NCBI GenBank assembly: GCA_017857175.1
Contig: JAFMDS010000002.1
Span: 58,704-122,703 of the forward strand
Direction: 5' to 3'
DNA length: 64,000 nucleotides
Source of the DNA: Candidatus Nanopelagicales bacterium
GTDB lineage: Bacteria > Actinomycetota > Actinomycetes > S36-B12
Below, piece after piece: positions 45,238-64,000 of the stretch (its first letter is position 1; the number at the start of each line of letters is the position of its first letter). The notes beneath the pieces were generated by a model. That model saw only the letters and a list, made by a program, of their open reading frames with translations. It ran no database searches and was not told the origin of the DNA. The position numbers were made by a program, and so were the translations under genes.

Positions 45238-46593
45238 GTGGAAATCAATAAGTTAGGAAAAAGGGCTGCGGCCCTTGCAATCGCGCTGAGCCTGACGGGT
45301 CTCGCGGCTTGTAGTTCGAGTTCTGACACGACGTCAGAGGAATCCGCAGCGGAGACATCGGCCGCGGAAACTGCTTCGGAGGCTGCCTCAGAGGATACGG
45401 CCACTGAGGCTGGTGGCACCTGTATCAACGAGATTTTCGGACCCGGTGGCGAAGCTGCTGGTGAGGGTGTGACCCTGAATGGTGGCATGTTGCTCGCTAT
45501 GACGGGAGCAGGCTCATTCTTCGGAGACGTTATGAGCAAGGGTGCCCAATTGGCAGCTGATCAAATTCGTGAAGCCGGTGGAATGGATTACCAAATCACG
45601 ATCGCGGATCACAACAATGGTGATGTGCCCACTGCTCTAACGGAAGTTAAGCGAATGATCTCACAGGATGACATTCGTGTTCTTCAGACTTCCTATGGTG
45701 CACCTTCAGAGGCAATTGCGCCGTTGATCGCTGAAGCGCCCGTATTGACCCTAAATGGTGGCGGATCGAGCCCCGGCCAGTTGAGTAAGGATTTCTTGTG
45801 GCAAAACCGTATGGTCTTTGCTGAAGATCCTGCGGCAGGTGCGCTCGCATGGATTCATCAGCAATACCCGGACGCAAAGACCTTGGCATTGATCGGTACC
45901 CAAGAGAACGGCGTCGGAGTATTCCAAGAGACTGCGCCAAATGCATGGGCAAAGTTGACCGGTGGAGAAGTAGTTGTTGCCGAACAGCACAATGTTGGCG
46001 ACACCGACTTTAAGGGTATCGCTTCCAAGATCAAGTCAGCTGGAGCAGATGCGATTCTTTCTGTTAGCTTCGGCGATGACCTGGGTTACCAGGTGAAGGC
46101 GGTACGTGAAGCTGGGATTGAAGTTCCTTTCATGGGAATCGAGTTCACAGGTCAAGCAGCAAGCATTGCAGGCTCAACCTACGACACATTCAATTTCGCA
46201 ACTGACTTCTACAATACCGAGAATCCGAATCCTTGGAACCAGTGCTTCGTCGAGGCCTACCAGGCTAAATACGGCGAGGATCCTGAATACTACGGCTCCA
46301 ATTACTACGAGCAAGTATTCATCTTCTGGGATTTGGTTAAGCGTGTTATTGCGGCAGGTGGAGATCCCACAGATCCCACACAGTTGCAGGATGCGTTGAT
46401 CGCAGACCCGAACTTCAAGTCTGTCTATGGCGGAAGTGACACGGTTGTTGGTGAAGTGACCTTGGACACCAATGACCACTCAATTTCAAAGCCAATGGGT
46501 GTGTTCTCGGTATCCAATGGAACACCAGTGCTGGAGCAGGAGATCCGAAAGGTATCACCAGCTGATGATCCCAATTCAGCTCTAGTCCAGTAA
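45238..46593 (+). CDS. ABC transporter substrate-binding lipoprotein, type I PBP (LivK / amide-binding family)
   Basis: The signal peptide ends in the lipobox LAAC. A Ser/Glu/Thr/Ala-rich linker follows, then a roughly 390-aa domain with the Liv-type pattern (GMLLAMTGAGSFFG..GAQLAADQIREAGG). It precedes livH-, livM-, livG- and livF-like genes. GGAGG lies 5 bp upstream of the GTG start. Confidence 0.85.
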   Translation: MEINKLGKRAAALAIALSLTGLAACSSSSDTTSEESAAETSAAETASEAASEDTATEAGGTCINEIFGPGGEAAGEGVTLNGGMLLAMTGAGSFFGDVMSKGAQLAADQIREAGGMDYQITIADHNNGDVPTALTEVKRMISQDDIRVLQTSYGAPSEAIAPLIAEAPVLTLNGGGSSPGQLSKDFLWQNRMVFAEDPAAGALAWIHQQYPDAKTLALIGTQENGVGVFQETAPNAWAKLTGGEVVVAEQHNVGDTDFKGIASKIKSAGADAILSVSFGDDLGYQVKAVREAGIEVPFMGIEFTGQAASIAGSTYDTFNFATDFYNTENPNPWNQCFVEAYQAKYGEDPEYYGSNYYEQVFIFWDLVKRVIAAGGDPTDPTQLQDALIADPNFKSVYGGSDTVVGEVTLDTNDHSISKPMGVFSVSNGTPVLEQEIRKVSPADDPNSALVQ

Positions 46594-46627
46594 TCCATTA
46601 AGTCGACGACGAAGGGGATAGTGAAGC

Positions 46628-47533
46628 GTGAATTTTGAACTATTGGCCCAATTGACAATTGCAGGTATTGTCCTTGGTTCCTTTTACGCATTGCTCGGTG
46701 TGAGTTTCGGTCTGGTTTACCAGACATCGAAAATCTTTCACCTTGCTAACGCTATCCCCTTCGCTGCCGGCGGATATGGAGCAGTTTGGTCGGCAGAGGT
46801 TCTCCATCTGCCGTTGTTTGTGGCGCTGGCCTTCGGGCTCTTGATGGCCGTTGTATTCGGTCTGCTTATTCTCTTTCTGGGTTACTTTCCAGTGATGCGC
46901 AGAAATGGAGCCCTGCTCTCACTCTTCCTCGTTTCATTAGGCATTACGGTGGCATTTCCAAACTTGTTACAGATTGTGTTTGGAACCGAAAATATTCCAT
47001 TACGAACTTATAATTCCGAAGGTGAATTGAGTAGTGCTTTTGACAACAGAGTTTTCAGTTCTGGGTTTCTCACAATTACGCTAATCGATGTCCTAAAAAT
47101 TATCGTCTCATGGGTGTTGATTATTGCTGTCGTTGTCTTTGTTAAAAGAACTAGATCCGGTCGCTCGATAACGGCACTTCGAACAAACCCGACGATGGCA
47201 ACAGCGGTAGGAATCGACAGGAAACGCGTTTACATATTGGTTTTTGCTCTTGGGTCATTTCTCGCAGGCGTTGCAGGACTCTTTGTGACCGCTGAATTTG
47301 TCGCCTCGCCCGTGATGGCTCTCCAATGGACAATCGTTGGCTTCATTGCAGTCTTTTTTGGGGGCATCGGTTCGCTCGTAGGTACCGCGTTCGGTGGTTT
47401 AGTGCTCGGCTTGCTGAGTAGTTTGAGTTCCCTTTATCTACCGGTCAATTACTCACCGATTGTCGTATTTGCATCATTATTCATAATTCTGCTGATCCGC
47501 CCGCAGGGTCTATTTGGGAAGGCATCGGTCTAG
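46628..47533 (+). CDS. branched-chain amino acid-type ABC permease (LivH family)
   Basis: The 301-aa protein is polytopic. It has the conserved LivH-type segment (RSGRSITALRTNPTMATAVGI) and a hydrophobic Gly-rich C-terminus. Confidence 0.88.
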   Translation: MNFELLAQLTIAGIVLGSFYALLGVSFGLVYQTSKIFHLANAIPFAAGGYGAVWSAEVLHLPLFVALAFGLLMAVVFGLLILFLGYFPVMRRNGALLSLFLVSLGITVAFPNLLQIVFGTENIPLRTYNSEGELSSAFDNRVFSSGFLTITLIDVLKIIVSWVLIIAVVVFVKRTRSGRSITALRTNPTMATAVGIDRKRVYILVFALGSFLAGVAGLFVTAEFVASPVMALQWTIVGFIAVFFGGIGSLVGTAFGGLVLGLLSSLSSLYLPVNYSPIVVFASLFIILLIRPQGLFGKASV

Positions 47534-47535
47534 TC

Positions 47536-49332
47536 ATGGGTTACTACGCGCAAATTGCAATCAATATCTTGATCCTCATGTCTCTCGCAGTCTCATTGAA
47601 CCTGCTGCTCGGGTATGCAGGAAGAGTTTCGATGGCGCAGGCGGTGCTTTTCGGAATCGGGGCTTTCACGGCCGCGCGCTTAGTTCTGCCCAAGGCAGAC
47701 GCTTCGAGTGCAGTGGCTGCATCTGGTATCAACTATGGTTTGGGATGGCACTGGCTTCCTGCGACTGTTGTGGCCATCGGTGTCACCTTTGTGGCCGCGC
47801 TCATAATTTCTCTGCCAGCGATTCGCCTCATTAAAGGTGAATACCTGATCCTGTTGACGTTGGCTTTCCAACTTGGTGGTGAGCAGATTCTTAGTGTGTG
47901 GGAGGGCTTCACAGGTGGCCCCTTTGGTGTAGCAGGCATTCCACCGCTGAAAATTGGTGACACGTCATTCTCCACCCTTCGTGAATCTGGAACGATCCTG
48001 TACGCAGGCCTAATGCTGGTTATCACGATTATTGTTATCTTGATTTCCTGGGGCCTTGGCGAATCGCCATTTGGTCGACTCTTGAAAACGATTCGTGGTA
48101 ACGAGACGCTTCTTCCGAGTCTAGGCAAGAATCCAATCCGACCGGAATTGCTCACCTTTGGAATCACAGCTGCAATTGCTGGAGGGATTGGAGCCTTTTT
48201 TGCCTATTCGCAGGGAGCGATGGTTCCTGGCAATTTCAGTTTGGACCTGTCAATTCTTGTCATTTCAGTTGTCGTACTCGGTGGGACAGGCAACATCGCG
48301 GGAACAATTGTTGGAGCGATCATTCTCGGGGGACTCGAACCAATTTTGCGGCAGGTCTTGGGTGATGAAGGGATTCCTTGGCAGCGAGTCATTTACGGTG
48401 CGGCACTAGTCCTCATGATGATCATTCGACCTGCTGGTCTCATTCCTGAAGGTGCATTAACTCGGATCCGAAAGCCCAAGGTTGCAAAGTCATTCGACCA
48501 GAATTTAAATGGAGCTCAAGGAATTCAGTTCGGTGACTTCACAAATAAGAGATCTAGTTCGCCGGAGGAGAATCTGAGTGAAGTCTTAGTCATCGAAGAC
48601 ATCAAAAAGTCTTTCGGGGGGTTGAGCGCCGTAGGTGGGGCGAGTTTCAGTTTGCGCAAGGGTCAAATCACTGCGCTCATTGGACCTAATGGCGCCGGTA
48701 AGACCACCATATTCAACATGATCACTGGAACTTTGAGTTGTGATTCAGGTTCCATCAAACTTCGTGGTCGAGAATTGACAGGCATGCCCACGTACGAAAT
48801 TGAACGACTTGGAATCGCGAGATCATTTCAAGATGTGCGACTCAACGAAAGCATGACAGTGCTGGACAATGTCGCGGTAGCTGTCCCGAATCAGCCGGGT
48901 GAGAAAATATTCAATCTAATTCTTCACCCTCTGAAGAGCCGCAAGGCCGAGAAAAGTGTTAATCAGATTGCTCTTGATTGTCTGGCCGTGTTGGGAGTCG
49001 CGCAGACTGCACATGAACTGGTCAGAAATTTGTCCTATGGGGATCAAAAGTTGGTGGCAATTGCGAGGCTATTGGCAACGGACTGTGACGTATTGTTGCT
49101 CGACGAACCGACGAGCGGTGTTGATCCAGGGAGTGTGAATCTCGTAATCGAGGGAGTATCGAAGTTGCGAGACCTAGGAAAGACCGTCTGTCTAGTTGAG
49201 CATTCAGTTCACTTTGTGGAACGCCTTGCCGATCACGCCATATTTCTCGACCAGGGCGTAGTTATTGCTGAAGGTACGGTGGCTGAACTCGTCTCGTCAG
49301 CCGAACTAACAGAACTCTATTTCGGGAATTAG
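47536..49332 (+). CDS. fused LivM-type permease and LivG-type ATPase
   Basis: Residues 1 to about 305 form a polytopic LivM-like permease (GYAGRVSMAQAVLFGIGAF, RLLKTIRGNE). A roughly 45-aa polar linker follows. The C-terminal ABC domain has GPNGAGKTT, LSYGDQKLVAIAR and LLLDEPTSGVD, all in one uninterrupted 598-codon frame. Confidence 0.88.
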   Translation: MGYYAQIAINILILMSLAVSLNLLLGYAGRVSMAQAVLFGIGAFTAARLVLPKADASSAVAASGINYGLGWHWLPATVVAIGVTFVAALIISLPAIRLIKGEYLILLTLAFQLGGEQILSVWEGFTGGPFGVAGIPPLKIGDTSFSTLRESGTILYAGLMLVITIIVILISWGLGESPFGRLLKTIRGNETLLPSLGKNPIRPELLTFGITAAIAGGIGAFFAYSQGAMVPGNFSLDLSILVISVVVLGGTGNIAGTIVGAIILGGLEPILRQVLGDEGIPWQRVIYGAALVLMMIIRPAGLIPEGALTRIRKPKVAKSFDQNLNGAQGIQFGDFTNKRSSSPEENLSEVLVIEDIKKSFGGLSAVGGASFSLRKGQITALIGPNGAGKTTIFNMITGTLSCDSGSIKLRGRELTGMPTYEIERLGIARSFQDVRLNESMTVLDNVAVAVPNQPGEKIFNLILHPLKSRKAEKSVNQIALDCLAVLGVAQTAHELVRNLSYGDQKLVAIARLLATDCDVLLLDEPTSGVDPGSVNLVIEGVSKLRDLGKTVCLVEHSVHFVERLADHAIFLDQGVVIAEGTVAELVSSAELTELYFGN

Positions 49333-49340
49333 GCGGCATC

Positions 49341-50063
49341 ATGACAATTGATACTCAAAGAAACGGCCTGGTAGTTCAAAATCTTTACGCGGGCTACGGT
49401 AAGCGCGACGTCATTTTCGACGTCAATATAAATGTATTGCCCGGAGAAATTGTTGGAGTCGTGGGTCATAATGGAGCGGGTAAATCGACTTTACTAAAGA
49501 GCATCTTTCGGTCCATGCCCATAGCGCGGGGTAATATCAATTTCGGGCAGCTCGATTTGACCAAAAAGACAAGTCCTTATGTGGTCGCGCAGGGCATTAG
49601 CTTCACGCCAGCCGAACTGCCTATTTTCCGCGACTTAACGGTGCAAGAGAATTTAGAGCTCGGAGCATTCTCAATAAAAAAACGTGCAACTTATTGGGAG
49701 CGTCTACACGAGGTGACCGAAATATTTCCCGTACTGGGAGAACGACTTAAGGAGACTGCGGGACGATTTTCAGGTGGTCAACAGCGACAACTTTCAATCG
49801 GAATGGCACTGATGACAAATCCAAAATTGATGATGTTGGATGAACCCTCACTGGGAATTTCACCCTCGGTTGTGCAAAAGACATTTCAGGTGATCCGCGA
49901 TCTCGCTAAAGAGCGTGATTCAAGCGTGCTGATCGTCGAACAAAATGTGAAAGCAATGACTCAAATTGCAGATCGGATCTACGTACTAAGAAACGGTGAA
50001 GTTGTCCTGGAGGAGACTCGCGAGGAAGCTTTATCTCGAGACGACTGGTGGGACCTGTTTTAA
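49341..50063 (+). CDS. LivF-type ABC transporter ATP-binding protein
   Basis: Walker A (GHNGAGKST), the signature FSGGQQRQLSIG and Walker B (MMLDEPSLGISP) are present. The length is 240 aa. Confidence 0.9.
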   Translation: MTIDTQRNGLVVQNLYAGYGKRDVIFDVNINVLPGEIVGVVGHNGAGKSTLLKSIFRSMPIARGNINFGQLDLTKKTSPYVVAQGISFTPAELPIFRDLTVQENLELGAFSIKKRATYWERLHEVTEIFPVLGERLKETAGRFSGGQQRQLSIGMALMTNPKLMMLDEPSLGISPSVVQKTFQVIRDLAKERDSSVLIVEQNVKAMTQIADRIYVLRNGEVVLEETREEALSRDDWWDLF

Positions 50064-50064
50064 A

Positions 50065-50877
50065 ATGTCAAAACAGAAAAATATGTCGTGTCACGAAAGT
50101 GGAGTGAGTACCAATCCTGCGTTGGTTCTCCTACATTCTCTTTGGCTTAATCACCACCAGTTCGATTCCTTAATATTGATGTATTCTCAAAGTTTTCATA
50201 TTTTTGCCTTCGACATTTATGGCCATGGCGATTCGCCGCCAAATAGTCCCGAGATTGAAGACTTGGGGAAAATCGCAACTCAAGTTCTTGATCAACTTGC
50301 CGTTGCGGGCATTGAGACTTTCCACATTCTGGGGCAATCGATGGGTGCAGATATCGGAGTCAGAATGGCAATTCAAGCTCCTAATCGGGTTCAGTCCATG
50401 GTATTAATTGGCAGCAGTTGCACACCTGCAAACCCAAGTCGATTGGATGTCTCTTTTGAATGGATCAACGAATTGGCCATCCAGGGTTTTACTGCAGAAG
50501 ATCTCACACGAGCATCAACCATTCTCCTCGGCGAGACTACTCGAACGAGTCCTGAAAGTAACTCTCAAGCAGTATTCGTAGATCAATTGCTTGCCAGCGT
50601 GACGCGTGATGTCATTCCAACCATGCGTGGCGTCTTTGCTCGTGCCGGGGTGTGTGAAGAATTGGATTCAGTTCATGTGCCATCACTTGTTATATCGGGT
50701 AGTGAGGACCTCGCACGACCTGTAGATCAAGGCCGAGCACTGTCCGAATGTCTCAGAAATTCACGTTTCGTCGAGTTCGACAAATGCGGCCACACACCTA
50801 TAATTGAGGCCTTTGATAGGTGCATCACCGAGATAGATAGCTTTTGGGATCAGTACCAGGTGGTCTGTCATGACTGA
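50065..50877 (+). CDS. alpha/beta-fold hydrolase (enol-lactonase-like)
   Basis: The oxyanion region LLHSLWLN, the nucleophile elbow GQSMGA, the acid region ISGSEDLARP and the histidine CGHTP are present. The ATG at 50065 lies 2 bp after the livF stop. Confidence 0.8.
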   Translation: MSKQKNMSCHESGVSTNPALVLLHSLWLNHHQFDSLILMYSQSFHIFAFDIYGHGDSPPNSPEIEDLGKIATQVLDQLAVAGIETFHILGQSMGADIGVRMAIQAPNRVQSMVLIGSSCTPANPSRLDVSFEWINELAIQGFTAEDLTRASTILLGETTRTSPESNSQAVFVDQLLASVTRDVIPTMRGVFARAGVCEELDSVHVPSLVISGSEDLARPVDQGRALSECLRNSRFVEFDKCGHTPIIEAFDRCITEIDSFWDQYQVVCHD

Positions 50878-56312: not shown

Positions 56313-56318
56313 GAAGGA

Positions 56319-56735
56319 ATGCTGATGCTTAATCCAGTACAAATAGAAACCTACAGCGCACTGGCAAATGAACTTATTCCTGCAGCAGAAGGAATGCCAA
56401 GCGCGTCTGAAGCTGATGTTCCAACCACCTGGATAAACACCGCCTTGGGGTATAGGCCGGATCTCGTCGAAGCATTTCTCAGATCGATTGACTCGTGCCG
56501 AGGAGAGGTTCCTGCTCGCGCACTCGAGAACCTGAATGCCAATGACACTGAAGCATTCGACGCGCTTGGCGTTTTAACTTCAGGTGCATACTTTCTCAAC
56601 CCTGGTGTCAAGGAATTGCTTGGTTATCCAGGACAGTTGCCGGTGCCGGCCCATGATGACACCGAAACCTATTTGGAGATTTTGGAACGCGTCGTCGATC
56701 GGGGTCCCATTTACCGGGCCTCAGTGAGCACCTGA
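56319..56735 (+). CDS. small protein resembling the gluconate 2-dehydrogenase subunit 3 family (gamma-like), no signal peptide
   Basis: The 138-aa protein has an N-terminal LANELIPAAEGMPSASEA segment. This matches the typical 'IP..g.PgAse' start of that family as I remember it. It has no RR motif and no hydrophobic signal. It lies 6 bp after GMC paralogue 1. Confidence 0.6.
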   Translation: MLMLNPVQIETYSALANELIPAAEGMPSASEADVPTTWINTALGYRPDLVEAFLRSIDSCRGEVPARALENLNANDTEAFDALGVLTSGAYFLNPGVKELLGYPGQLPVPAHDDTETYLEILERVVDRGPIYRASVST

Positions 56736-56742
56736 GGTCATC

Positions 56743-57207
56743 ATGGAGTTTCCACATCCATCCCGACCGGGTTATTACGGACTGGAATTCAGCAACGAAT
56801 TGTCATCAGCTATTGCGTTGGCGGCTGATGTACTCATTCCAGGTAACGAACATTACCCAAGCGCCTCATCTGCTCGCGTTGTCAATTTCATCGAAGAACG
56901 AAGCAGCGATCAGGATCGAGAAAACCTGAAACGAGTCATCGAGCTCCTTGGACCTGATTTAAGTTCAGAGGAGGCAATGCACGCACTCGAAATGGAGCAT
57001 GCGGAACTCTTTATTTGGTTTCGGGACTTTATCTACCATGCATATTATGCTTCCAATTTGGTTCTTGATGCGCTTTCCAAGAGGGGATACGCCTATCACG
57101 GTGCACCTCAACCGCTCGGGTATAGAACCGAGGTTAATCAGGCACAACCTAGGACGACGCGAGGATTTCATTTCAGTAGTGCGGAGGTAACTAAAAATCA
57201 TGGCTAA
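56743..57207 (+). CDS. second small gamma-like protein (gluconate 2-dehydrogenase subunit 3-like), no signal peptide
   Basis: The 154-aa protein has the segment LAADVLIPGNEHYPSASSA, analogous to its upstream neighbour. An 8-bp overlap joins it to the following GMC gene. It contains no Cys and no twin-arginine motif. Confidence 0.55.
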   Translation: MEFPHPSRPGYYGLEFSNELSSAIALAADVLIPGNEHYPSASSARVVNFIEERSSDQDRENLKRVIELLGPDLSSEEAMHALEMEHAELFIWFRDFIYHAYYASNLVLDALSKRGYAYHGAPQPLGYRTEVNQAQPRTTRGFHFSSAEVTKNHG

Positions 57208-58843
57208 TTCCGAAGAAGTCGATGTAATAGTTGTTGGAGCCGGAATGGCTGGGCTGAAGATCTCCCAGGTTCTTACAAATGCAGGTGCACGAGTCGTTTG
57301 TCTCGAACAAGGTCCAACTGTTGCTGCCGTGGATCATCCAACATTCACATCCGATTGGGAATTCTCAATTGGAAGAGAATGGGCTTTCAACCCCAATATT
57401 CGCGGTCTGGAGTACGACTTCCCAGTCGAAACAAACGGGACGTTTCAGCCTTACCTGTACAACGCGGTGGGGGGCAGCACTAATCATTACTCGGCTTTCT
57501 GGCACAGGCTTAAGCCAGTCGACTTTCTTAAAGGCACTGAGCACGGACTTGAGGGCGCTATCGATTGGCCCATCACCTATGAAGATCTTGCACAGTACTA
57601 CGACCTTACAGATAACGAGATAGGAATATCAGGCCTCAAAGGAGATAGAGCCTATCCCGATCGCAGCGATGCTCATCGTATGCCGTTAGTCGGCCATGGA
57701 AAATACGCCGCGATTATTGCCGAGGGCCTTGAAAAATTGAATGTGCATTGGTGGCCTGCAGATAACGCGATTCTTACTCAGCGTGTAGGGGATCGGCTGC
57801 CCTGTAATTCATGCGGCATGTGCAACCTGGGATGTCCAAGGGGTTCACTTGGTACAGCTCAGGATGTCTACCTGTCATCTGCGCTCGCCCGTGGTCTGGA
57901 CTTGAGGCCAGGGTCCCGAGTCTCTTCGGTTACAACGGACACGCAAGGACGTGCATCCGGTGTAATTTATACGGATATTGATACAGGCACAGAGCACAAG
58001 ATAACTGCACAAGTCGTTGTTGTATCTGCAAATGGCATTGGCACGCCACGTTTGCTTCTGATGTCTGAGGGATCGAAGCATCCCCAGGGTCTGGGTAACA
58101 ATAATGATCAGGTGGGCAGGTACTTCATGACACATGGCTACCGCTTAGCTGATATGTGGTTTGATCACTCCACAGAACACTACAAAGGGCCTTTTGGTGC
58201 AGGACCTTACGTGCAAGAGTGGTATGACACGGACCCGAATCATGATTTTGTAAATGGTGTGACGATCACATTTGGCGGCGCCTGGGGTCCTGCAGTCAGC
58301 GCATTGGGTGCAACCACGCGCACGCGGCCCGCGGCGTGGGGTAGCAAACATCATAACGAATTCGAGGAAAGATTTGACCGTCATATTTTTTGCGCCATTC
58401 AGGCGGACGATCTGCCAGTTGCCACGAATCGGGTGACTCTCGACCCCATTGTGAAAGATGCTGGTGGTCTGCCCGCGGCTAATGTGCATTACGACCTGCA
58501 TGAAAACACTAGGAAACTACTTGAATTTGGTAGTGACCGTCTACAGGAGATCGCAAATGCTGCAGGTGCAATCGGACTTGATCTTCAGCCAATGGACGAG
58601 CGATTCTCCCAGCCTGGATGGCATCTAATGGGGACGGCGCGAATGAGTGCAGATCCAGAAAATGGTGTGACGGACAAATGGAATCGTGTATGGGACACCC
58701 CTGGTTTGGTGGTTTGCGATGGTAGCTCCATGACCAGCGGGGGCGCGGGCAATCCAACATCGACAATTGTCACCTTAGCGGCTCGATGCGCGGACAATCT
58801 TGTCAAGAACATGGGGCAACCAGTTGAGGCCGCAGGTGAGTAA
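57200..58843 (+). CDS. GMC-family FAD oxidoreductase, Fe-S-type catalytic subunit (paralogue 2)
   Basis: The FAD motif is DVIVVGAGMAGLKISQVL..CLEQG. The GMC C-terminus reads HLMGTARM..NRVWDTPGLVVCDGSSMTSGGAGNPTSTIV. The Cys motif C-x2-C-x2-C-x3-CP (CNSCGMCNLGCP) lies at nt 57803-57835. At 547 aa it is exactly the same length as paralogue 1. Confidence 0.88.
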   Translation: MANSEEVDVIVVGAGMAGLKISQVLTNAGARVVCLEQGPTVAAVDHPTFTSDWEFSIGREWAFNPNIRGLEYDFPVETNGTFQPYLYNAVGGSTNHYSAFWHRLKPVDFLKGTEHGLEGAIDWPITYEDLAQYYDLTDNEIGISGLKGDRAYPDRSDAHRMPLVGHGKYAAIIAEGLEKLNVHWWPADNAILTQRVGDRLPCNSCGMCNLGCPRGSLGTAQDVYLSSALARGLDLRPGSRVSSVTTDTQGRASGVIYTDIDTGTEHKITAQVVVVSANGIGTPRLLLMSEGSKHPQGLGNNNDQVGRYFMTHGYRLADMWFDHSTEHYKGPFGAGPYVQEWYDTDPNHDFVNGVTITFGGAWGPAVSALGATTRTRPAAWGSKHHNEFEERFDRHIFCAIQADDLPVATNRVTLDPIVKDAGGLPAANVHYDLHENTRKLLEFGSDRLQEIANAAGAIGLDLQPMDERFSQPGWHLMGTARMSADPENGVTDKWNRVWDTPGLVVCDGSSMTSGGAGNPTSTIVTLAARCADNLVKNMGQPVEAAGE

Positions 58844-58868
58844 TTTTTCATCCCAGAACAACTCAAGT

Positions 58869-60071
58869 ATGTGGGACTTAGCCATCGTAGGGGGTGGCGT
58901 TGTCGGGCTTGGCATTGCAAAAGCATGGAAAGCGCGGAACCCTTCGGACAAAATCATTGTCCTCGATAAAGAGACCCACGTGGGCGCACATGCTTCGGGT
59001 CGCAACAGCGGCGTGCTCCATGCTGGCTTCTACTATGCGCCAGACTCACTCAAGGCGCGATTGACCAAAGATGGGAACGCGATGTTGCGGGCCTTTTGCT
59101 ATGAGCACGGAGTTCCGATTCGTGAAACAGGAAAAGTTGTTGTTACACAGTCTCATGCAGAGATACCGGCCTTGGAAGAGTTGTACCGCCGAGGTCTTCT
59201 CAATGACTGTGAGCTCGAGATTGTCGATGAAAATCAACTTCGGGAGCTCGAACCGCTGGCACGCACCGCAGGTAAAGCAATTTGGTCGCCTTTGACTGCC
59301 GTGTCAAGCCCCGTAGGTGTAACGAAAAAGTTGGCCGAGGTTGTTGTCGATCAAGGCTGCGAATTGCGATTAGGTGTATCAGTCGTTACTGGACGAGCAG
59401 GGGAACTAACTCTTAGTACAGGTGAGGTCATTCGCGCAGGTCATATTGTCAATGCAGCGGGACTCTATGCCGACAAAGTAGCTCACTGGTTCGATGTTGG
59501 CCTAGATTACAAAATGTTACCGTTCAAAGGGCTATACCTTTATAGCGATTGGCCAGACGGACGCCTGACTAGGCAAGTTTATCCGGTTCCAAATCCAAAG
59601 AATCCATTTTTGGGTGTACACGTGACCATTACCGTTGAAGGCAGAGTGAAAATCGGCCCAACGGCAATCCCAGCGTTAAAGCGCGAGGACTACGGCAAAC
59701 CTTATGCTTTGTTACCGAAAGAGTTGCTCGAGATTTCACGACTCTATCCCAGATTCCTGACCAGTCCACACCACAATGTCGCCGAATTAATCGCATCGGA
59801 GCTTCCAAAGTACAACAAAACATACTTGGTCAATCAAGCCAAGCCACTTGTTCCCTCGATAAATAAAAAGCATTTTAAGGAGCGAGGGAAGCCTGGGGTC
59901 CGTGCTCAATTGCTACATGTTCCGTCGAAGCAATTAGTAATGGACTTTCTCGTCATATCGGGGGAGAGTTCAACACACATGATGAACGCCGTTTCCCCTG
60001 CTTGGACAAGTTCCCTTGCCGTCGGTGAGTACACAGTTCAGAAAATACATGATGGCGGTTTCCCCGCATGA
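58869..60071 (+). CDS. lhgO: FAD-dependent L-2-hydroxyglutarate oxidase/dehydrogenase family protein (LhgO-like)
   Basis: The FAD motif is DLAIVGGGVVGLGIA. Matches to remembered E. coli LhgO include SGRNSGVLHAGFYYAPDSLKA, PFKGLYL, YPVPNPKNPFLGVHVT..G.VKIGPTAIPALKREDY, GVRAQ and NAVSPAWTSS. The ATG at 58869 is preferred over the ORF-track start at 58800. Confidence 0.82.
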   Translation: MWDLAIVGGGVVGLGIAKAWKARNPSDKIIVLDKETHVGAHASGRNSGVLHAGFYYAPDSLKARLTKDGNAMLRAFCYEHGVPIRETGKVVVTQSHAEIPALEELYRRGLLNDCELEIVDENQLRELEPLARTAGKAIWSPLTAVSSPVGVTKKLAEVVVDQGCELRLGVSVVTGRAGELTLSTGEVIRAGHIVNAAGLYADKVAHWFDVGLDYKMLPFKGLYLYSDWPDGRLTRQVYPVPNPKNPFLGVHVTITVEGRVKIGPTAIPALKREDYGKPYALLPKELLEISRLYPRFLTSPHHNVAELIASELPKYNKTYLVNQAKPLVPSINKKHFKERGKPGVRAQLLHVPSKQLVMDFLVISGESSTHMMNAVSPAWTSSLAVGEYTVQKIHDGGFPA

Positions 60072-60092
60072 AATCTAGAGAGGTAGTAGTCC

Positions 60093-60905
60093 ATGACTGA
60101 ATCAATAAACGCATTGAGCGAGGCGTTAAAGAATGCTTCAGTGTTTGATCTTGAACAACAGAGATTTATTGGGGCACCAATTTATCCCCACCATTGGCCC
60201 GGATTTGTCTACACGCTGCATCGCCATCACGTTGATGTGCCGGGACAGGCTCGAACGAGCGCATCAGGAACGGTAACTATGCAGGAACACAGCGGAACGC
60301 ACATTGATGCGCTGTGTCATCAAGCACTTGAAATGGAGATGTACGGGGGAATCAAGGTCAATTCTTCAAACCAGACGCCAAGAGGGTTTCTTGATCTCGG
60401 TGTGGAGACAATTGAACCTATTATTCGCCCAGCAGTTCTCCTCGATGTCGCTAGGAGCAAGGGCGTTGCACGGTTGCCCAAGGGCTACTTGATCACTCGG
60501 CAAGATCTTGAAGATGCAGCCGAATCCCAGGGTATAGCAATCATGAAGGGTTCCTGTGTCTTGATTCGAACTGGTTGGGGGGCAACTTTCAGCGATACAG
60601 ATGATTATCTGTCGGCTGCTGGGATATCGGCTGACGGTGCACTTTGGCTAGCTGAGCAAGGACCATTTCTCTGTGGCGCAGATAACGTGGCATTTGACTA
60701 TCCTGACAATGTCGACATCGAGTTGGGCTCTTTGCCATGCCACGTGGTTTTGATCATTCAAAATGGAATCTACATTGTTGAAAACCTGCTGCTGGAGGAA
60801 CTAGCTGCAGCGGAGTGCTGGGAGTTCACCTTTGTCTGCCTGCCACTCAAAATGCAAGGTGTGACGGGTTCTCCCGTGCGACCTTTAGCGATTAAAACAA
60901 ATTAA
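60093..60905 (+). CDS. cyclase-family metal-dependent hydrolase (kynurenine formamidase / isatin hydrolase fold)
   Basis: The signature HxGTHxDxxxH is present (HSGTHIDALCH). The length is 270 aa, and LIRTGWG is typical of the family. Confidence 0.8.
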   Translation: MTESINALSEALKNASVFDLEQQRFIGAPIYPHHWPGFVYTLHRHHVDVPGQARTSASGTVTMQEHSGTHIDALCHQALEMEMYGGIKVNSSNQTPRGFLDLGVETIEPIIRPAVLLDVARSKGVARLPKGYLITRQDLEDAAESQGIAIMKGSCVLIRTGWGATFSDTDDYLSAAGISADGALWLAEQGPFLCGADNVAFDYPDNVDIELGSLPCHVVLIIQNGIYIVENLLLEELAAAECWEFTFVCLPLKMQGVTGSPVRPLAIKTN

Positions 60906-60966
60906 TAGATCTGAAGCAATACAAAACAACCACAAGGCAGTACACAACTATCAAAAGGAGAAGATC

Positions 60967-61386
60967 ATGGAAGCAATCACTCTGGCAGCGGTAAAGCGCG
61001 CACTTGAAAGTGCCGAGAATAAAGCAAATGAAATTGGATCCCCTTCATCCATCGCGATTATGGATTCAGGTCGCGAACTACTTGGATTCGTTCGCATGGA
61101 TGGGGCGCTTCTTGCAAGCGCCGAGATCTCACAGGCCAAGGCCTATACCTCGCGATCCATGAACGCACCGACTTCCGCACTTGGAGAGTATGTGCAACCG
61201 GGCGCACCGTTGTTTGGCCTAGAGTCGGCACATTTCAAGGCTGGTCGTGCGCTGATCACGTTCGGCGGCGGTGTTCCAGTGACGATAAACGGCGAAGTTG
61301 TCGGAGCTGTCGGGGTAGCCGGCGGAAGCCCTGATCAAGATGAACAAATCGCATTGGCTGCAGCCGTAGTTCTTGAGGGCGCATGA
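60967..61386 (+). CDS. GlcG/HbpS-like (DUF336) heme-binding/degrading-domain protein
   Basis: The 139-aa protein has the family pattern ..AIMDSGRELLGFVRMDGA...S...S..KAYT.....T......GGVP...NGEVVGAVGVAGGSPDQDEQIA. AAGGAG lies upstream of the ATG. Confidence 0.72.
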   Translation: MEAITLAAVKRALESAENKANEIGSPSSIAIMDSGRELLGFVRMDGALLASAEISQAKAYTSRSMNAPTSALGEYVQPGAPLFGLESAHFKAGRALITFGGGVPVTINGEVVGAVGVAGGSPDQDEQIALAAAVVLEGA

Positions 61387-62156
61387 TGAAGGATTTGGCA
61401 ACACTTGAAGGCAAGAAGATCTTGATGACCGGTGGAGCGGGCAATATTGGCCGGGCATCTGCGCTGTTGTTAGCCGAAAAAGGAGCTACCATCGCAATTG
61501 GTGATCTCGATCTCGCAGGAACACAAGAAACTGTCGAGATGATTGAAAGTGCTGGTGGTAAAGCGAAGGCATTCCAGCTTGATGTCCGCAGCGAGGCAGA
61601 AGTAGCAAACTTTGTCACTCAGGCAGCGAGTTACCTCGGCGGCGTTGTTGACGGTGTGTTCTTAAACGCTGGGCTTCAGAGGTCTGGTCGGGTAGATGAG
61701 TTCGACAGCGACGATTGGGATGCGCTCTTTGATGTCAATCCGCGTCACTGCTTCTACGTGACTAAACACGTTGTTCCGATACTTAAGGCCCAAAATGGGG
61801 GAGCGATCGTGATGACTGCCTCCCTCGCTGGGGTTAAGGGGGGCCCAGGAATGACCGCATACTCCGCTTCAAAAGGGGCAATTATTGGATTTGGCAAATC
61901 GCTTGCTGCAGAAATGGCACCGTTCGATGTTCGCGTGAATGTACTGTGTCCAGGATGGATTGATACGGCATTTAATGAACCCGCAATTAATTTCATGGGG
62001 GGAGTCGATGCCCATGCCGAGGCCATTAAGGCAATTGTGCCATTGCGCAGGCAAGGATCTAATGAGGAAATTGCTCAAGCTGTGTTGTTCTTGATATCAG
62101 ATGCTTCCTCATATATGACAGGACAGTCAATGATTATTGATGGTGGTGTCTATTAG
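61383..62156 (+). CDS. short-chain dehydrogenase/reductase (classical SDR)
   Basis: Motifs TGGAGNIGRA, NAG, S..YSASKGA (the catalytic YxxxK) and PGWIDT are present. A 4-bp overlap joins it to the glcG-like gene. Confidence 0.9.
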   Translation: MMKDLATLEGKKILMTGGAGNIGRASALLLAEKGATIAIGDLDLAGTQETVEMIESAGGKAKAFQLDVRSEAEVANFVTQAASYLGGVVDGVFLNAGLQRSGRVDEFDSDDWDALFDVNPRHCFYVTKHVVPILKAQNGGAIVMTASLAGVKGGPGMTAYSASKGAIIGFGKSLAAEMAPFDVRVNVLCPGWIDTAFNEPAINFMGGVDAHAEAIKAIVPLRRQGSNEEIAQAVLFLISDASSYMTGQSMIIDGGVY

Positions 62157-62231
62157 TTCTCGAACCAGATTCATATCTCGAAGAGAGCAGGATTAGGCTT
62201 CCCAACTCATGGTCTATGCGGGGAGGGCACA

Positions 62232-63272
62232 GTGACATCGGAGTTAGGTTCTACATCAAGGGTTACTATGGCGACTGTCGCAGAAGTGGCAGGTGTTTCC
62301 GTTGCTTCTGTATCGAATGCCCTGAATGAAAGAGTTGGCCTGAGCCCTGAGGTTCGGTCCCGCATTTTAGCCGTCGCTGACGGACTGGGTTATCGAAGGA
62401 ACACTTTGGCGCAGGAGCTGCGAATCGGTCGTTCGCGCACAGTTGGGCTTAGTGTGGTGGATCTGGCGAATCCCTTTTACGCTGATCTGTCACAAGGCGT
62501 AGTAAAGACGGCTGGAGAACATGACTATGACGTCTTTCTTTCTAGTGTAGGGCCCGAGAGTGAGTCACTGAAGGAGGTAGTGGACGGCTTCCTAGATCGA
62601 AGACTTGGCGGTTTGCTGTTTACGTCATTGACGAATGCGGACGCAGAATTGCTCCGGAGATTGCAGAAGCACGCCATCCCTTTTGTCAAACTCGTGCGCG
62701 ATGTTCAAGGCGTGGTAGCTGACTGGGTTGGCATAGACGACTACTCAGGTGGAGTAGCTCTGGGCGATCACATTGCAGCAACTGGAAGAAAAACGGTGGC
62801 CTGCTTGGGTGGACCCTCTGACTCCAATGCTTCAGCGGCCCGCGTAAATGGTATTCGGATGGGCTTGGCAAGAAAGGGCATCAATTTGATTAATGAAGCT
62901 CAGCCAAATTTACATGGAACACCAACTCGCATGTCAGGGTACAACCGGGCATTGAGTCTGCTGCAGGAGAACAAGCGTATCGAGTGCATTATTGGGGGGA
63001 ATGACGTAATTGCCATTGGCATTCTTGACGCCTGCAGAGATAATGGATTCTCAGTACCTGAAGATATCGCTGTCGCCGGGTTCGATAACATGACGTTTTC
63101 GTCCGCAGGCCCATTGGAATTGACCACGGTTGATGTTCCCCGCGAACAAATTGGAGCAATTGGCATGAAATTCCTCATCGAGAGAATGGATGGCTTCACT
63201 GGACCCCCACGACGCAAATTTTTGCCGTTTGACCTTGCCATTCGTTCCTCAACTAGCCCAAAAAGTGACTGA
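62232..63272 (+). CDS. LacI-family transcriptional regulator
   Basis: The N-terminal HTH reads TMATVAEVAGVSVASVSNALN. A periplasmic-binding-protein-like effector domain follows (VGLSVVDLANPFY.., IIGGNDVIAIGIL, VAGFDN). Confidence 0.9.
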   Translation: MTSELGSTSRVTMATVAEVAGVSVASVSNALNERVGLSPEVRSRILAVADGLGYRRNTLAQELRIGRSRTVGLSVVDLANPFYADLSQGVVKTAGEHDYDVFLSSVGPESESLKEVVDGFLDRRLGGLLFTSLTNADAELLRRLQKHAIPFVKLVRDVQGVVADWVGIDDYSGGVALGDHIAATGRKTVACLGGPSDSNASAARVNGIRMGLARKGINLINEAQPNLHGTPTRMSGYNRALSLLQENKRIECIIGGNDVIAIGILDACRDNGFSVPEDIAVAGFDNMTFSSAGPLELTTVDVPREQIGAIGMKFLIERMDGFTGPPRRKFLPFDLAIRSSTSPKSD

Positions 63273-63307
63273 ATTGTGTGTTTAATACTCCATAGGGAGG
63301 TAAAACA

Positions 63308-64000
63308 ATGAATTCAGAAGTGATCCCCATTCCTGGTTGTGACATGTATACCCGCACATTTGGGACGCCAACGAGTAAAGCCGTATTGTGTTTACATTCC
63401 CTTTTTCTCAATGGTGGGATGTTTTATGAGTGGGCAGAGTCTGTGTCCGACGAACTATTTGTAGTGGTACCCGACTTTAGGGGGCAAGGGCGTAGCGCAA
63501 ACCTTGAACACCAGTCCATTCTGGACATGGACCTATACGCAGCAGATATCCAGTCTTTCATAGATGTCTTTTCCCGCCGTCATAGCGTTGACACTTATGG
63601 CCTTCTAGCGCAATCGATGGGTGGTGATGTGGGACTGCGGGTCGCTTACAACAATCCAGAGAGAATCAATTCGGTAGCCCTTCTCGGGTCTTCCGCCTGC
63701 GATGAGCCACCCAATCAACTGCAAGATTTCCACAAATGGGTCAAGGGGGTGGAGGCTTCAGGCTTTACAGGTGATGCCTTGGAATACACATACAAGGTGA
63801 TGCTTGGGGAGACCTGTCGAAATGATCCTCAGCGATCTTCCATTTCAGAGGGGCTCCGCGCACAACTGGCACAACTTGATTTAGATCTCTTGCCTGCAAT
63901 GCGTGGAGTCGTTGAACGAACGAGTGTGATGCATCATTTGCATAACATTACGATACCCACACTAATAATTTCAGGACAGGAAGATTGGGTTCGTCCACCG
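63308..64000 (+). CDS. alpha/beta-fold hydrolase, paralogue of 50065-50877; 3' end truncated by the window edge
   Basis: My own translation gives MNSEVIPIPGCDMYTRTFG..LCLHSLFLNGG..PDFRGQGRS..AQSMGGDVGLRVA..LLGSS..MLGETCRNDP..LPAMRGV..IPTLIISGQEDWVRPP, open to base 64000. GGGAGG lies upstream of the ATG. It is absent from the ORF track because no stop codon falls within the window. Confidence 0.78.
   Translation, partial: MNSEVIPIPGCDMYTRTFGTPTSKAVLCLHSLFLNGGMFYEWAESVSDELFVVVPDFRGQGRSANLEHQSILDMDLYAADIQSFIDVFSRRHSVDTYGLLAQSMGGDVGLRVAYNNPERINSVALLGSSACDEPPNQLQDFHKWVKGVEASGFTGDALEYTYKVMLGETCRNDPQRSSISEGLRAQLAQLDLDLLPAMRGVVERTSVMHHLHNITIPTLIISGQEDWVRPP

Follow-up and report, generated by a model that had tools for sequence, protein, structure and literature searches.

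A probable hydroxy-acid catabolic island with two predicted cytoplasmic Fe-S GMC dehydrogenases in an estuarine Candidatus Nanopelagicales MAG

From position 45238 to the end of the window (the whole stretch of 64,000 nucleotides that was analysed), the list of open reading frames contains 18 ORFs, all on the plus strand. A preliminary description had counted 19 co-directional genes; the common direction stands, and the count is reached only when the fused LivM-LivG gene is taken as two. With the internal ATG codons at 50065 (alpha/beta hydrolase 1) and 58869 (LhgO-like gene) used as starts, the successive gaps measure 34, 2, 8, 1, -8, -4, -7, 42, 6, 7, -8, 25, 21, 61, -4, 75 and 35 bp, in exact agreement with the range of -8 to 75 bp given earlier. 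Because 34 of the 45 upstream genes in the window likewise lie on the plus strand, co-directionality alone is weak evidence, and the real signal is the tight spacing together with conserved synteny. The family assignments proposed earlier were all upheld by Pfam and NCBIfam, the small proteins being gamma-like at the profile level.

The left border (44753..45237, no strand) is a non-coding stretch of 485 bp between the divergent trhO gene and the first island gene, and is the presumed promoter/operator region. Described earlier as the only long non-coding stretch of the window, it is the longest that contains no ORF. It has no Rfam match, and two imperfect palindromes within it (44852-44867 and 45191-45206) are candidate operators only. 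At the opposite end, the suggestion that the block may continue past hydrolase 2 does not hold: on the contig, this gene ends 162 bp beyond the window and is followed only by a convergent 319-aa HSL-type esterase, a 55-nt junction to contig C64 and the contig end. The unit thus delimited, in an estuarine Candidatus Nanopelagicales MAG, comprises about 20.5 kb with 18 co-directional genes and the convergent esterase.

The first four genes encode a Liv/HAAT-type ABC importer: a substrate-binding lipoprotein (45238..46593, plus strand as for all genes below; Peripla_BP_6, E=1.6e-44) with an LAAC lipobox followed by a linker rich in Ser/Thr/Glu/Ala, a LivH-type permease (46628..47533; BPD_transp_2, E=5.5e-34), a fused LivM-type permease and LivG-type ATPase (47536..49332; BPD_transp_2 in residues 5-295, ABC_tran in 368-527), and a LivF-type ATPase (49341..50063; ABC_tran, E=3.6e-27). 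The LivM-LivG fusion (593-644 aa) is also present in loci L003-L007, and orthologues of the binding protein with 59-72% identity occur in L003, L006 and L007; no ligand-informative relative of it was found in the PDB. Importers of the Liv/HAAT family are chiefly known to carry amino acids, urea and amides, which speaks against a sugar-acid ligand. Alpha/beta hydrolase 1 (50065..50877; Abhydrolase_1) is a PcaD-like candidate lactonase or esterase, which in NCBIfam comes closest to 3-oxoadipate enol-lactonases but stays far under their cutoffs. It shares 32% identity with alpha/beta hydrolase 2 (63308..64000 within the window; Abhydrolase_1), which is 284 aa long when the full gene is read on the contig. 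The LacI-family protein (62232..63272; LacI HTH and Peripla_BP_1/3) has RbsR and GntR as its nearest models. Among the fetched loci, its orthologue is found only in L002, a near-identical sister MAG, and the regulator, both hydrolases and the esterase are confined to this lineage's version of the block, a restriction that counts against the single-pathway reading given below.

Two dehydratases follow hydrolase 1. The IlvD/Edd-family protein of the sugar-acid type (50870..52567; ILVD_EDD_N and _C) scores 704 bits with the subfamily model NF004784 and 591 with the L-arabinonate dehydratase equivalog, below the cutoff of 882; its closest PDB entries are 8ej0 and 5j83, the latter an L-arabinonate dehydratase. 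The same genome has a further ilvD-like gene, of the housekeeping kind, on contig C20. The enolase-superfamily protein (52564..53703; MR_MLE_C/N), an acid-sugar dehydratase of the mandelate racemase subgroup, reaches 226 bits against the cutoff of 500 of the L-talarate/galactarate dehydratase equivalog, and its KxK motif, metal ligands and His align with those of 2pp0, 2og9 and 3ozm. Next to it is a D-isomer-specific 2-hydroxyacid dehydrogenase or 2-ketoacid reductase (53697..54626; 2-Hacid_dh_C, E=6.6e-45). Every NCBIfam equivalog cutoff is missed by this enzyme, by both dehydratases and by the short-chain dehydrogenase/reductase (SDR) described below; for the dehydratases and the SDR this weighs against the reading proposed further on.

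Downstream of the GMC genes lies an FAD-dependent L-2-hydroxy-(di)carboxylate dehydrogenase of the LhgO family (58869..60071), which exceeds the NF008726 cutoff (317 bits vs 299). A stand-alone paralogue with 60% identity is found on contig C24 of the same genome, and related clusters hold different, stronger LhgO paralogues (480-505 bits). The Cyclase-family (PF04199) metal-dependent hydrolase (60093..60905; E=1e-28) has as PDB relatives only the uncharacterised 5ibz and the distant kynurenine formamidase and isatin hydrolase; its gene is co-conserved in L003, L022, L027, L035 and L036. Members of this family with known function hydrolyse amides, which likewise fits a sugar-acid substrate poorly. 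The GlcG/HbpS-like (DUF336) gene (60967..61386; PF03928, E=6e-37) overlaps by 4 nt with that of the SDR (61383..62156; adh_short_C2, E=4e-57), whose PDB relatives are generic. The former accompanies GMC1 in 19 of 49 loci, and SDR orthologues with 44-62% identity are likewise present in 19 of the 49 GMC1 loci.

The center of the block is occupied by two GMC dehydrogenases, each with a small subunit. GMC1 (54669..56312; GMC_oxred_N/C) is closest in the PDB to the FAD-GDH alpha subunit (6a2u_B) and the FDH large subunit (7w2j_A), and its residues C208/C214/C218 align with the 3Fe-4S ligands C212/C218/C222 (Cys-x5-Cys-x3-Cys) (PMC6719666). It retains the catalytic His and Asn, and orthologues with 53-77% identity were found in 78 loci. 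GMC2 (57200..58843; GMC_oxred_N/C) has 37% identity to GMC1, keeps the C202-x5-C208-x3-C212 spacing and is closest to the fructose dehydrogenase large subunit. The small protein sm1 (56319..56735), assigned by adjacency and profile evidence, adjoins GMC1 in 47 of 49 loci, and sm2 (56743..57207), the small subunit of GMC2 and likewise without a signal sequence, adjoins GMC2 in L004-L008, L022 and L036. Neither has a significant Pfam match alone (PF13618 for sm2, E=0.0015, below cutoff). PF13618 is matched by 10 of 41 sm1-family members, hhalign matches the sm1 family to sm2 at 92% probability, and the AF2 model of sm1 is all-helical (pLDDT 92) with no significant Foldseek match in the PDB, so that sm1 is designated gamma-like on its profile similarity.

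No signal peptide was detected in GMC1, no Tat motif in any of 49 sm1-family small-subunit orthologues, and no CxxCH motif of cytochrome c in any frame of the island. By sequence, both enzymes are of the Fe-S FAD-GDH/fructose dehydrogenase type but cytoplasmic, as judged from the missing Tat signal and cytochrome c. A precedent for alcohol oxidation is given by IbcH and IbcI of Mycolicibacterium sp. ELW1, which have 51% and 38% identity to the GMC/small-subunit pair, IbcH being a predicted 2-methyl-1,2-propanediol dehydrogenase (PMC13188929). In 20-21 of 49 loci (about 40%), GMC1-sm1 has genes for EtfA, EtfB and an EtfD-like protein as neighbours, and in an Agrobacterium pAt plasmid they form one operon with the GMC pair. 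In the present genome, two EtfAB pairs and one EtfD-like fragment are encoded outside the island, a point against the reading proposed below.

The block is best read as a single acquired catabolic island. In three genomes of the same genus, gcvP-trhO is present without it, and the genes upstream there have their counterparts on contig C64 of the present genome; contig C23 terminates in 55 nt identical to the reverse-complemented end of C64. In the sister MAG L002, the esterase is followed by the same 224-aa neighbour. At 50.1%, against 53.4% genome-wide, the GC content of the island ranks among the lowest 2% of 20-kb windows. Of 21 other same-genus genomes, one has a close GMC1 orthologue (99% identity), which makes 2 of 22 including this one; a third has only a relative at 33% identity. 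When 400 genomes of the class were sampled, one had an IlvD orthologue. Insertion between conserved genes, low GC and rarity among relatives bear out the accessory, niche-specific character proposed in the preliminary description, as does the absence of the block from sisters that keep gcvP-trhO.

Adjacency by chance, which had been named as a possible refutation, is countered by co-conservation. In L003, a Nanopelagicaceae MAG, 13 genes (SBP-LivH-LivMG-LivF-IlvD-enolase-2HADH-GMC1-sm1-LhgO-cyclase-GlcG-SDR) keep their order at 43-75% identity; L004-L008 keep the Liv ABC, LhgO, IlvD, enolase, GMC1-sm1 and sm2-GMC2, and this core, with its two GMC/small-subunit pairs, is shared by Nocardioides, Aeromicrobium and Frankiales. 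The Nocardioides aquiterrae cluster stops at GMC2, and therefore the core requires no further enzymes encoded nearby. Clusters of the Nocardioides type contain a nickel-pincer (LarA-like) isomerase (PMC11770544), which the window cluster lacks, having a D-2-hydroxyacid dehydrogenase instead.

The block is also a mosaic of modules that are found apart from one another, and because they occur separately it may represent two or three pathways. In Alphaproteobacteria, GMC1-sm1, SDR and GlcG lie beside CUT2 sugar transporters without IlvD, enolase or LhgO. It is conceivable, though we regard it as unlikely, that two or three independent operons for different substrates share only a variable chromosomal hotspot: (a) importer, hydrolase, IlvD, enolase and 2HADH; (b) the two GMC/small-subunit pairs; and (c) LhgO, cyclase, GlcG and SDR with LacI. 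About 19 loci combine GMC1-sm1 with SDR and GlcG but have no IlvD or enolase, just 4 of 49 have IlvD, enolase and Liv ABC, module borders coincide with the larger gaps (42, 61 and 75 bp), and the site adjoining trhO carries different genes in different sister genomes. Against this, the 13 ordered genes of L003 span all three modules in a different family-level lineage, the core of modules a and b travels with an LhgO in Nocardioides, Aeromicrobium and Frankiales, the entire block has a single regulator gene (LacI family), and its intergenic gaps contain no predicted intrinsic terminator.

Considered as one unit, the block probably serves to take up a hydroxylated organic acid and degrade it to central metabolites. 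No characterised equivalent was found in the literature, and the Weimberg/Dahms routes differ, the island having no ALDH, KDP dehydratase or aldolase; together with the missed dehydratase equivalog cutoffs, this agrees with the earlier view that no characterised pathway matches. Of the first reading overall, the accessory nature, the co-conservation and the lack of a matching pathway have thus held, and the continuation past hydrolase 2 has not. A non-phosphorylative oxidation of a polyhydroxy-carboxylate to 2-oxo-dicarboxylates has, in our judgement, an even chance of being correct; we infer the substrate class, the step order, the electron acceptor in this organism and the end product. The lipoprotein-anchored importer would take up a sugar acid, deoxy-sugar acid or its lactone. 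The GMC pairs would oxidise hydroxyls, most likely a terminal CH2OH to the carboxylate, and lactone or ester forms could be opened by the PcaD-like and cyclase-family hydrolases. From 2,3-dihydroxy-acid ends, the IlvD-type and enolase-type dehydratases may produce 2-oxo-3-deoxy acids, and the LhgO-family and D-2-hydroxyacid dehydrogenases would oxidise or invert 2-hydroxy-(di)carboxylate intermediates. The carbon would end up in 2-oxo-dicarboxylates of the 2-oxoglutarate or oxaloacetate type without the action of a kinase, an aldolase, an aldehyde dehydrogenase or a decarboxylase, and repression would presumably be exerted by the LacI-family protein. Related clusters also contain an LhgO-family enzyme, though a different paralogue, and this lends some weight to the proposed end point of 2-oxoglutarate.

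A nitrogenous substrate (an amide, lactam or amino-acid derivative, e.g. a hydroxy-amino acid or N-substituted sugar acid), imported by the Liv system and stripped of its nitrogen group by the cyclase-family or alpha/beta hydrolases before degradation of the hydroxy acid, seems distinctly unlikely. It would suit an importer of the amino-acid/amide/urea HAAT family and the characterised cyclase-family relatives, formamidases and isatin hydrolase. Moreover, an Agrobacterium plasmid GMC/small-subunit pair (52-53% identity) lies behind a Liv-type transporter near oxoprolinase-like, serine/threonine dehydratase and RidA genes, and a Sinorhizobium plasmid pair accompanies aminotransferase and hydantoinase/oxoprolinase genes. 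However, the island and Agrobacterium binding proteins share 23% identity and are not orthologues, the two dehydratases belong to the acid-sugar type, the LacI-type regulator is nearest to RbsR and GntR, and the island lacks genes for an aminotransferase, a deaminase, an ammonia-lyase or an amine oxidase. A small neutral diol or polyol, oxidised from alcohol to hydroxy-aldehyde to hydroxy-acid as in the ELW1 isobutylene pathway, with the dehydratases and LhgO/2HADH enzymes handling the resulting short hydroxy acids, is improbable: IbcH/IbcI homology from a diol-oxidation context, urea (a small neutral molecule) among the ligands of HAAT-type binding proteins, which also bind amides, and the alphaproteobacterial pairing with CUT2 transporters, typical carriers of monosaccharides and polyols, would favour it, but about 51% identity to IbcH need not mean a shared substrate, short diols need no two acid-sugar dehydratases, and the island has no aldehyde dehydrogenase vs two in the ELW1 cluster.

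In the oxidation of a polyhydroxy-carboxylate, electrons from the two GMC enzymes would reach the respiratory chain likely via ETF and an EtfD-like protein, and not via a cytochrome c subunit. Predicted cytoplasmic GMC pairs that are ETF-linked in related loci alter how the oxidation steps should be pictured.

All open reading frames (ORFs) from position 45238 onwards lie on the plus strand, as the preliminary description had it, in the order: Liv-type binding protein, LivH, a LivM-LivG fusion, LivF, hydrolase 1, an IlvD-type dehydratase, an enolase-type enzyme, a D-2-hydroxyacid dehydrogenase (2HADH), the GMC-type protein GMC1, the small proteins sm1 and sm2, GMC2, an LhgO-like protein, a cyclase-family protein, a GlcG protein, an SDR, a LacI regulator and hydrolase 2. 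They number 18 and not 19, the latter count being reached only when the fusion is counted twice. The spacing of -8 to 75 bp was reproduced exactly with internal ATG starts at 50065 and 58869, and each family name was confirmed with Pfam and NCBIfam, although the IlvD protein, the enolase-superfamily protein, the 2HADH and the SDR reach no NCBIfam equivalog cutoff. The suggestion that the block may continue past the window holds only as far as hydrolase 2, which stops 162 bp beyond it and is followed by a convergent HSL-type esterase and the end of the contig. Because 34 of the 45 upstream genes are also on the plus strand, co-directionality alone has little weight, and the weight is carried by packing and synteny instead.

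The non-coding stretch preceding the block measures 485 bp and is indeed the longest of the window; a region of 724 bp that looked like a gap (29735-30458) is occupied by a 254-aa ORF. The operator search returned just two palindromes in the 485-bp region, both imperfect and neither common to the internal gaps. One, ACTTAATCAATTTAGT (45191-45206), lies 32 nt 5' of the binding-protein start codon and could serve as an operator; the other is GAGCGCAGCTGCGTTC (44852-44867). Promoter and terminator scans gave sites no more numerous than in shuffled sequence, with none inside the intergenic gaps, and Rfam and tRNA scans found no match in or beside the island. Further to the left, a glycine riboswitch aptamer (RF00504, 62 bits; 40768-40863) occupies the 228-bp gap upstream of gcvP, an arrangement that is as expected.

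The proposal that the block is accessory is upheld by its absence at the corresponding site of close relatives, where the flanking synteny is conserved, its deviant GC content and its rarity in the genus. In three same-genus genomes gcvP and trhO, the genes left of the island, are kept and the block is absent, and what lies upstream of trhO in them has its counterparts at the end of C64, a second contig of this 2.0-Mb, 83-contig genome, in which the window sits on contig C23. The last 55 nt of C23 (about 65,177-65,231 if the window numbering is extended) equal the reverse-complemented end of C64; given these identical ends, the two contigs join directly after the island. In a near-identical sister MAG the esterase is followed by the same 224-aa neighbour. 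The block is thus some 20.5 kb of DNA inserted between genes that are conserved, as indicated by its absence from the three genomes that keep the flanks, the join to C64 and the sister MAG. The assembly break falls on the island border, and strain variation at this site may be the reason.

The GC content of the island is 50.1% compared with 53.4% for the genome, among the lowest 2% of 20-kb windows, and its GC3 is 0.476 versus 0.518. A close GMC1 orthologue (99% identity) was found in one of 21 other same-genus genomes, that is, in two of 22 including this one, and a third genome has only a relative of 33% identity. An IlvD orthologue occurs in a single genome of the 400 sampled from the class, on a 4.7-kb contig that is too short for context. 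The block is nearly intact in about twenty metagenomes of aquatic, estuary, salt-marsh and seawater origin. The window contains no tRNA, the 18 scanned ORFs include no integrase or transposase family, and a search of the left border region revealed no repeats marking the island. Between trhO and the conserved 224-aa gene, two of the genomes that lack the block (L091 and L092) carry one to three unrelated small genes and the third (L090) carries none; the site beside trhO looks like a variable hotspot. Expression evidence from two runs labelled as metatranscriptomes and as DNase-treated (X6 and X7) was dropped because their depth is flat: in window positions 24001-64000 it is about 20x alike over the island, intergenic DNA, 20 kb of core genes and trhO on the opposite strand. 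Both runs contain the block, and one of their contigs spans 45130-62567. Since the runs behave like genomic DNA, they support no conclusion on operons.

A GMC1 scan yielded 78 loci, onto which every island protein was mapped by tblastn. Thirteen genes are found in the same order, at 43-75% identity, in a Nanopelagicaceae MAG (L003): those for the binding protein, LivH, LivM-LivG, LivF, IlvD, the enolase, 2HADH, GMC1, sm1, LhgO, the cyclase, GlcG and the SDR. The loci L004-L008, from Nocardioides aquiterrae and from MAGs of Aeromicrobium, Frankiales and Actinomycetales, keep the Liv ABC transporter, an LhgO, IlvD, the enolase-type enzyme, an IclR regulator and the GMC1-sm1 and sm2-GMC2 pairs; L004 and L005 also have a nickel-pincer (LarA-like) isomerase of NCBIfam group 22, in place of the window's 2HADH. 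In N. aquiterrae the genes past GMC2 form an unrelated aromatic cluster, which indicates that a core of this type is self-contained. GMC1-sm1, LhgO, the cyclase, GlcG and the SDR are kept in Streptosporangiaceae, Geodermatophilus and two other MAGs (one titled Bacillota), the first two of which additionally carry sm2-GMC2. The LacI regulator, both PcaD-like hydrolases and the esterase are confined to this lineage among the fetched loci.

The conserved order and core across L003, L004-L008 and further loci exclude adjacency by chance, in line with the preliminary view of the genes as a unit. The block is modular all the same, and its modules are found apart elsewhere, as would be expected of a mosaic of independent operons; with the order conserved across lineages, we consider such a mosaic unlikely. 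In sum, the catabolic island is real: its genes are co-conserved, belong to known families and were acquired horizontally.

The closest relatives of GMC1 and GMC2 are catalytic subunits, those of Burkholderia FAD-glucose dehydrogenase (FAD-GDH) and Gluconobacter fructose dehydrogenase (FDH). The island pairs share with the gamma-alpha-beta FAD-GDH of Burkholderia cepacia (BcGDH; 6a2u, PMC6719666) and with FDH (7w2j) the fold, the His/Asn pair, the Cys-x5-Cys-x3-Cys motif and a small-subunit gene adjoining that of the catalytic subunit. Residues C208, C214 and C218 of GMC1 align with the 3Fe-4S ligands C212, C218 and C222 of 6a2u_B (PMC6719666); the Cys spacing of GMC2 is the same. The catalytic His and Asn are conserved. 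BcGDH His105, the proposed covalent link to FAD (PMC6719666), has an aligned His in GMC2, whereas residue 105 of GMC1 is a Leu, also present in the L004-L008 orthologues, with a His four residues on. The small protein sm1 has no significant Pfam match and sm2 matches PF13618 at E=0.0015, below the cutoff; however, 10 of 41 members of the sm1 family match PF13618, and hhalign of this family against sm2 gives a probability of 92%. Both may therefore be grouped, at the profile level, with gluconate 2-dehydrogenase subunit 3. Foldseek with the AlphaFold model of sm1 (pLDDT 92, all-helical) found no significant match in the PDB, the gamma subunit of FAD-GDH included.

In the known complexes the small subunit bears a 47-residue Tat signal and electrons pass to a cytochrome c subunit (PMC6719666). 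By contrast, neither a Tat motif nor an N-terminal extension is present in sm1 or sm2, the Tat signal is absent in 49 of 49 orthologues, and the CxxCH motif of multihaem cytochrome c is absent from every island open frame of at least 80 aa; related loci have an EtfAB and EtfD-like partner. Lacking both a small-subunit signal and CxxCH, the GMC enzymes must act in the cytoplasm. This location fits the ABC importer of the island, a Liv/HAAT system that consists of a binding protein of the Peripla_BP_6 family, a pair of BPD_transp_2 permeases and two ABC ATPases, one of them fused to a permease.

Neighbours of GMC1 were counted in the 49 loci with at least 6 kb on either side of it. The most frequent is sm1 (47 loci), followed by EtfA, EtfB and an EtfD-like membrane Fe-S protein (20-21 loci), identified by Pfam assignment, a CUT2 sugar transporter (19-21), the SDR and GlcG (19 each) and an Amidohydrolase_2 lactonase-like protein (13). 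In most cases the genes for ETF and the EtfD-like protein directly adjoin GMC1 and diverge from it, and on an Agrobacterium plasmid they belong to the same operon as the GMC pair, after a Liv-type transporter. Mycobacterial EtfD joins ETF to the respiratory chain (PMC13083937); the "GMC" matches in that paper are strain names and not GMC enzymes. This genome encodes two EtfAB pairs and an EtfD-like fragment outside the island, and, together with the neighbour link in the other loci, these genes make ETF the most likely acceptor.

The nearest system with a functional study is that of Mycolicibacterium sp. ELW1, in which IbcH is 51% identical to GMC1 and IbcI 38% identical to sm1 over 123 aa. 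IbcH is abundant and inducible and is predicted to oxidise 2-methyl-1,2-propanediol, its vicinal-diol dehydrogenase activity thus being a prediction, and IbcI was published as a 16-kDa hypothetical protein (PMC13188929). The ibcI gene lies on a plasmid (L095, 13647-14099) and encodes a homologue of the signal-less sm1; IbcI probably forms a complex with the alcohol dehydrogenase IbcH as its partner subunit. In ELW1 as in the island, a GMC enzyme is followed by a small protein, of 16 kDa in ELW1, and both are without a signal peptide. The ELW1 pair belongs to an inducible catabolic cluster whose other genes, unlike those of the island, encode an alkene monooxygenase, an epoxide hydrolase and two aldehyde dehydrogenases (PMC13188929). 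The GMC/small pairs of the island are similar to an alcohol dehydrogenase that acts on vicinal diols. No description of a class of cytoplasmic Fe-S flavoprotein dehydrogenases was found in the literature searched.

The KxK motif, metal ligands and His that characterise L-talarate/galactarate dehydratases and related enzymes that bind aldarates are retained in the enolase-type enzyme, and the nearest relative of the IlvD-type enzyme is L-arabinonate dehydratase. Both dehydratase types would work on the 2,3-dihydroxy-carboxylate end of the substrate. The LhgO-like protein passes the NF008726 cutoff marginally (317.4 versus 299 bits), and an enzyme of this family is expected to convert an L-2-hydroxy-dicarboxylate to the 2-oxo-dicarboxylate. 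It shares with LhgO of the E. coli CsiD-LhgO system an FAD-dependent DAO fold and a score above this cutoff, but the island has no CsiD-type glutarate hydroxylase, the score is marginal and a 60%-identical paralogue occurs elsewhere in the genome. This stand-alone paralogue (L097 on contig C24, 11239-12504, minus strand) sits between two two-component systems and a thioredoxin gene and looks like the housekeeping copy of the lineage. The Nocardioides-type and Bacillota-type clusters contain a different, much stronger LhgO (480-505 bits), and this use of different paralogues in related clusters indicates that LhgO-family activity was recruited repeatedly.

An isomerase of the LarA superfamily is encoded in the Nocardioides-type clusters and absent from the window. 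The group 22 protein, of 446 aa (L005, 6431-7771, with a match in L004), is encoded between the IlvD and enolase genes and scores 418 bits in NCBIfam, with DUF362 only in Pfam. Members of the nickel-pincer superfamily racemise or epimerise malate, 2-hydroxyglutarate, gluconate and arabinarate (PMC7583248, PMC11770544), and the LarA-superfamily literature searched contains no description of the function of group 22. The presence of this NPN-dependent isomerase points to stereo-inversion of a 2-hydroxy acid in the pathway. By analogy, either the 2HADH or the isomerase would allow C2 inversion of a 2-hydroxy acid, and the window's 2HADH together with LhgO could do the same job by redox. EfgA, a member of the GlcG/DUF336 family, senses formaldehyde (PMC8153426), which raises the possibility that the GlcG protein binds a reactive carbonyl. 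For the binding protein, the cyclase-family protein and the SDR, sequence searches of the PDB yielded no hint of a ligand or substrate.

The Weimberg, Dahms and Route III pathways (Herbaspirillum huttiense, PMC6336799) share with the island the IlvD/Edd- and enolase-type dehydratases, lactone-opening hydrolases, an SDR, the lack of a kinase and, as predicted for the island, central 2-oxo acids as products. Both pentonate dehydratase types of Weimberg/Dahms are present, both below equivalog cutoffs. Unlike these pathways, the island has no assigned NAD(P)-dependent sugar 1-dehydrogenase and is devoid of a DHDPS-/FAH-type KDP dehydratase, an alpha-ketoglutarate semialdehyde dehydrogenase, an aldolase and an FAH hydrolase; it has instead two Fe-S flavoprotein dehydrogenases, an LhgO-family enzyme, a cyclase-family hydrolase, GlcG and a Liv-type importer. 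The DHDPS, FAH, ALDH and aldolase families are absent among the 18 scanned ORFs, a set to which the convergent esterase does not belong. The Weimberg and Dahms pathways were rejected because these ORFs lack the KDP dehydratase and semialdehyde dehydrogenase of the one and the KDP aldolase of the other. Route III employs a KDP 4-dehydrogenase (SDR) and then an FAH-family 2,4-diketo-3-deoxy-acid hydrolase (PMC6336799). It was set aside tentatively: an SDR is present, though a generic one, no FAH protein occurs among the scanned ORFs, and other hydrolase families are found there. The glucarate/galactarate route (no KdgD or ALDH), the sulfoquinovose/DHPS route (no desulfonating enzyme) and the L-ascorbate/L-lyxonate, pyridoxine, hydroxyproline and betaine routes also appear to lack key enzymes here and were set aside. 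The literature searched describes no pathway with this gene set, in agreement with the earlier statement that it fits none. The island is putatively of the sugar-acid type with an oxidative, non-phosphorylative route, and no characterised pathway that could be found has its arrangement of genes.

We hold with evenly balanced confidence that the island performs the non-phosphorylative oxidation of a polyhydroxy-carboxylate to 2-oxo-dicarboxylates. A specific scheme, which we regard as possible though rather doubtful, is the simplest one confined to the activities listed; neither the island nor its minimal core has an aldehyde dehydrogenase, an aldolase, a kinase or a decarboxylase. The importer would take in an omega-hydroxy sugar acid or deoxy-sugar acid or the lactone of such an acid, the two flavoprotein dehydrogenases would convert the terminal alcohol to a carboxylate, and the IlvD or enolase enzyme would dehydrate the product to a 2-oxo-dicarboxylate of the 2-oxoglutarate/oxaloacetate type. 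LhgO, with the 2HADH or the nickel-pincer isomerase, would deal with stereoisomers of the 2-hydroxy-dicarboxylate; in this island, the opening of lactones or esters would fall to the three or four hydrolases, and one further oxidoreduction to the SDR. A nitrogenous substrate, to which the transporter family, the relatives of the cyclase-family protein and the gene settings in Agrobacterium and Sinorhizobium would point, appears distinctly unlikely beside dehydratases of sugar-acid type. A small neutral diol or polyol, for which ELW1 is the precedent, is improbable for an island with no aldehyde dehydrogenase, against two in the ELW1 cluster.

Joined to the sugar-acid reading, these observations allow a wider and tentative proposal, namely that the GMC pairs represent a widespread cytoplasmic class that passes electrons via ETF and EtfD-like proteins and anchors an actinobacterial pathway for omega-hydroxy sugar acids. 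The class may span Actinomycetota, Alpha-, Beta- and Gammaproteobacteria and Bacillota. The small subunit, the Tat "hitch-hiker", may be a structural or maturation partner and not an export device, and ETF with the EtfD-like membrane protein may replace the cytochrome c subunit. The pathway may lead from omega-hydroxy sugar acids to aldarate-type dicarboxylates and directly to 2-oxoglutarate or oxaloacetate, and may do so without an aldehyde dehydrogenase, aldolase, kinase or decarboxylase. New biology is most likely to lie in the pair of Fe-S flavoprotein dehydrogenases, cytoplasmic and linked to ETF.

Since cultured carriers exist (among them Nocardioides aquiterrae JCM 11813, Aeromicrobium sp. 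Root472D3, Mesorhizobium sp. B2-1-3A and Ramlibacter sp. WS9), a direct test can be made. If true, the signal-less GMC/small pair and its ETF/EtfD link would change the accepted view of what the small subunit does in an enzyme class used in biosensors. The minimal core, consisting of the transporter, two dehydratases, an epimerase or 2HADH, LhgO and two Fe-S flavoprotein dehydrogenases, suggests a compact route from hydroxy acids to the 2-oxo acids of the TCA cycle that lies outside current pathway databases. Streamlined aquatic Actinobacteria are abundant and their substrate range is poorly known, and a rare, acquired pathway of 18 genes marks a specific resource niche among them.
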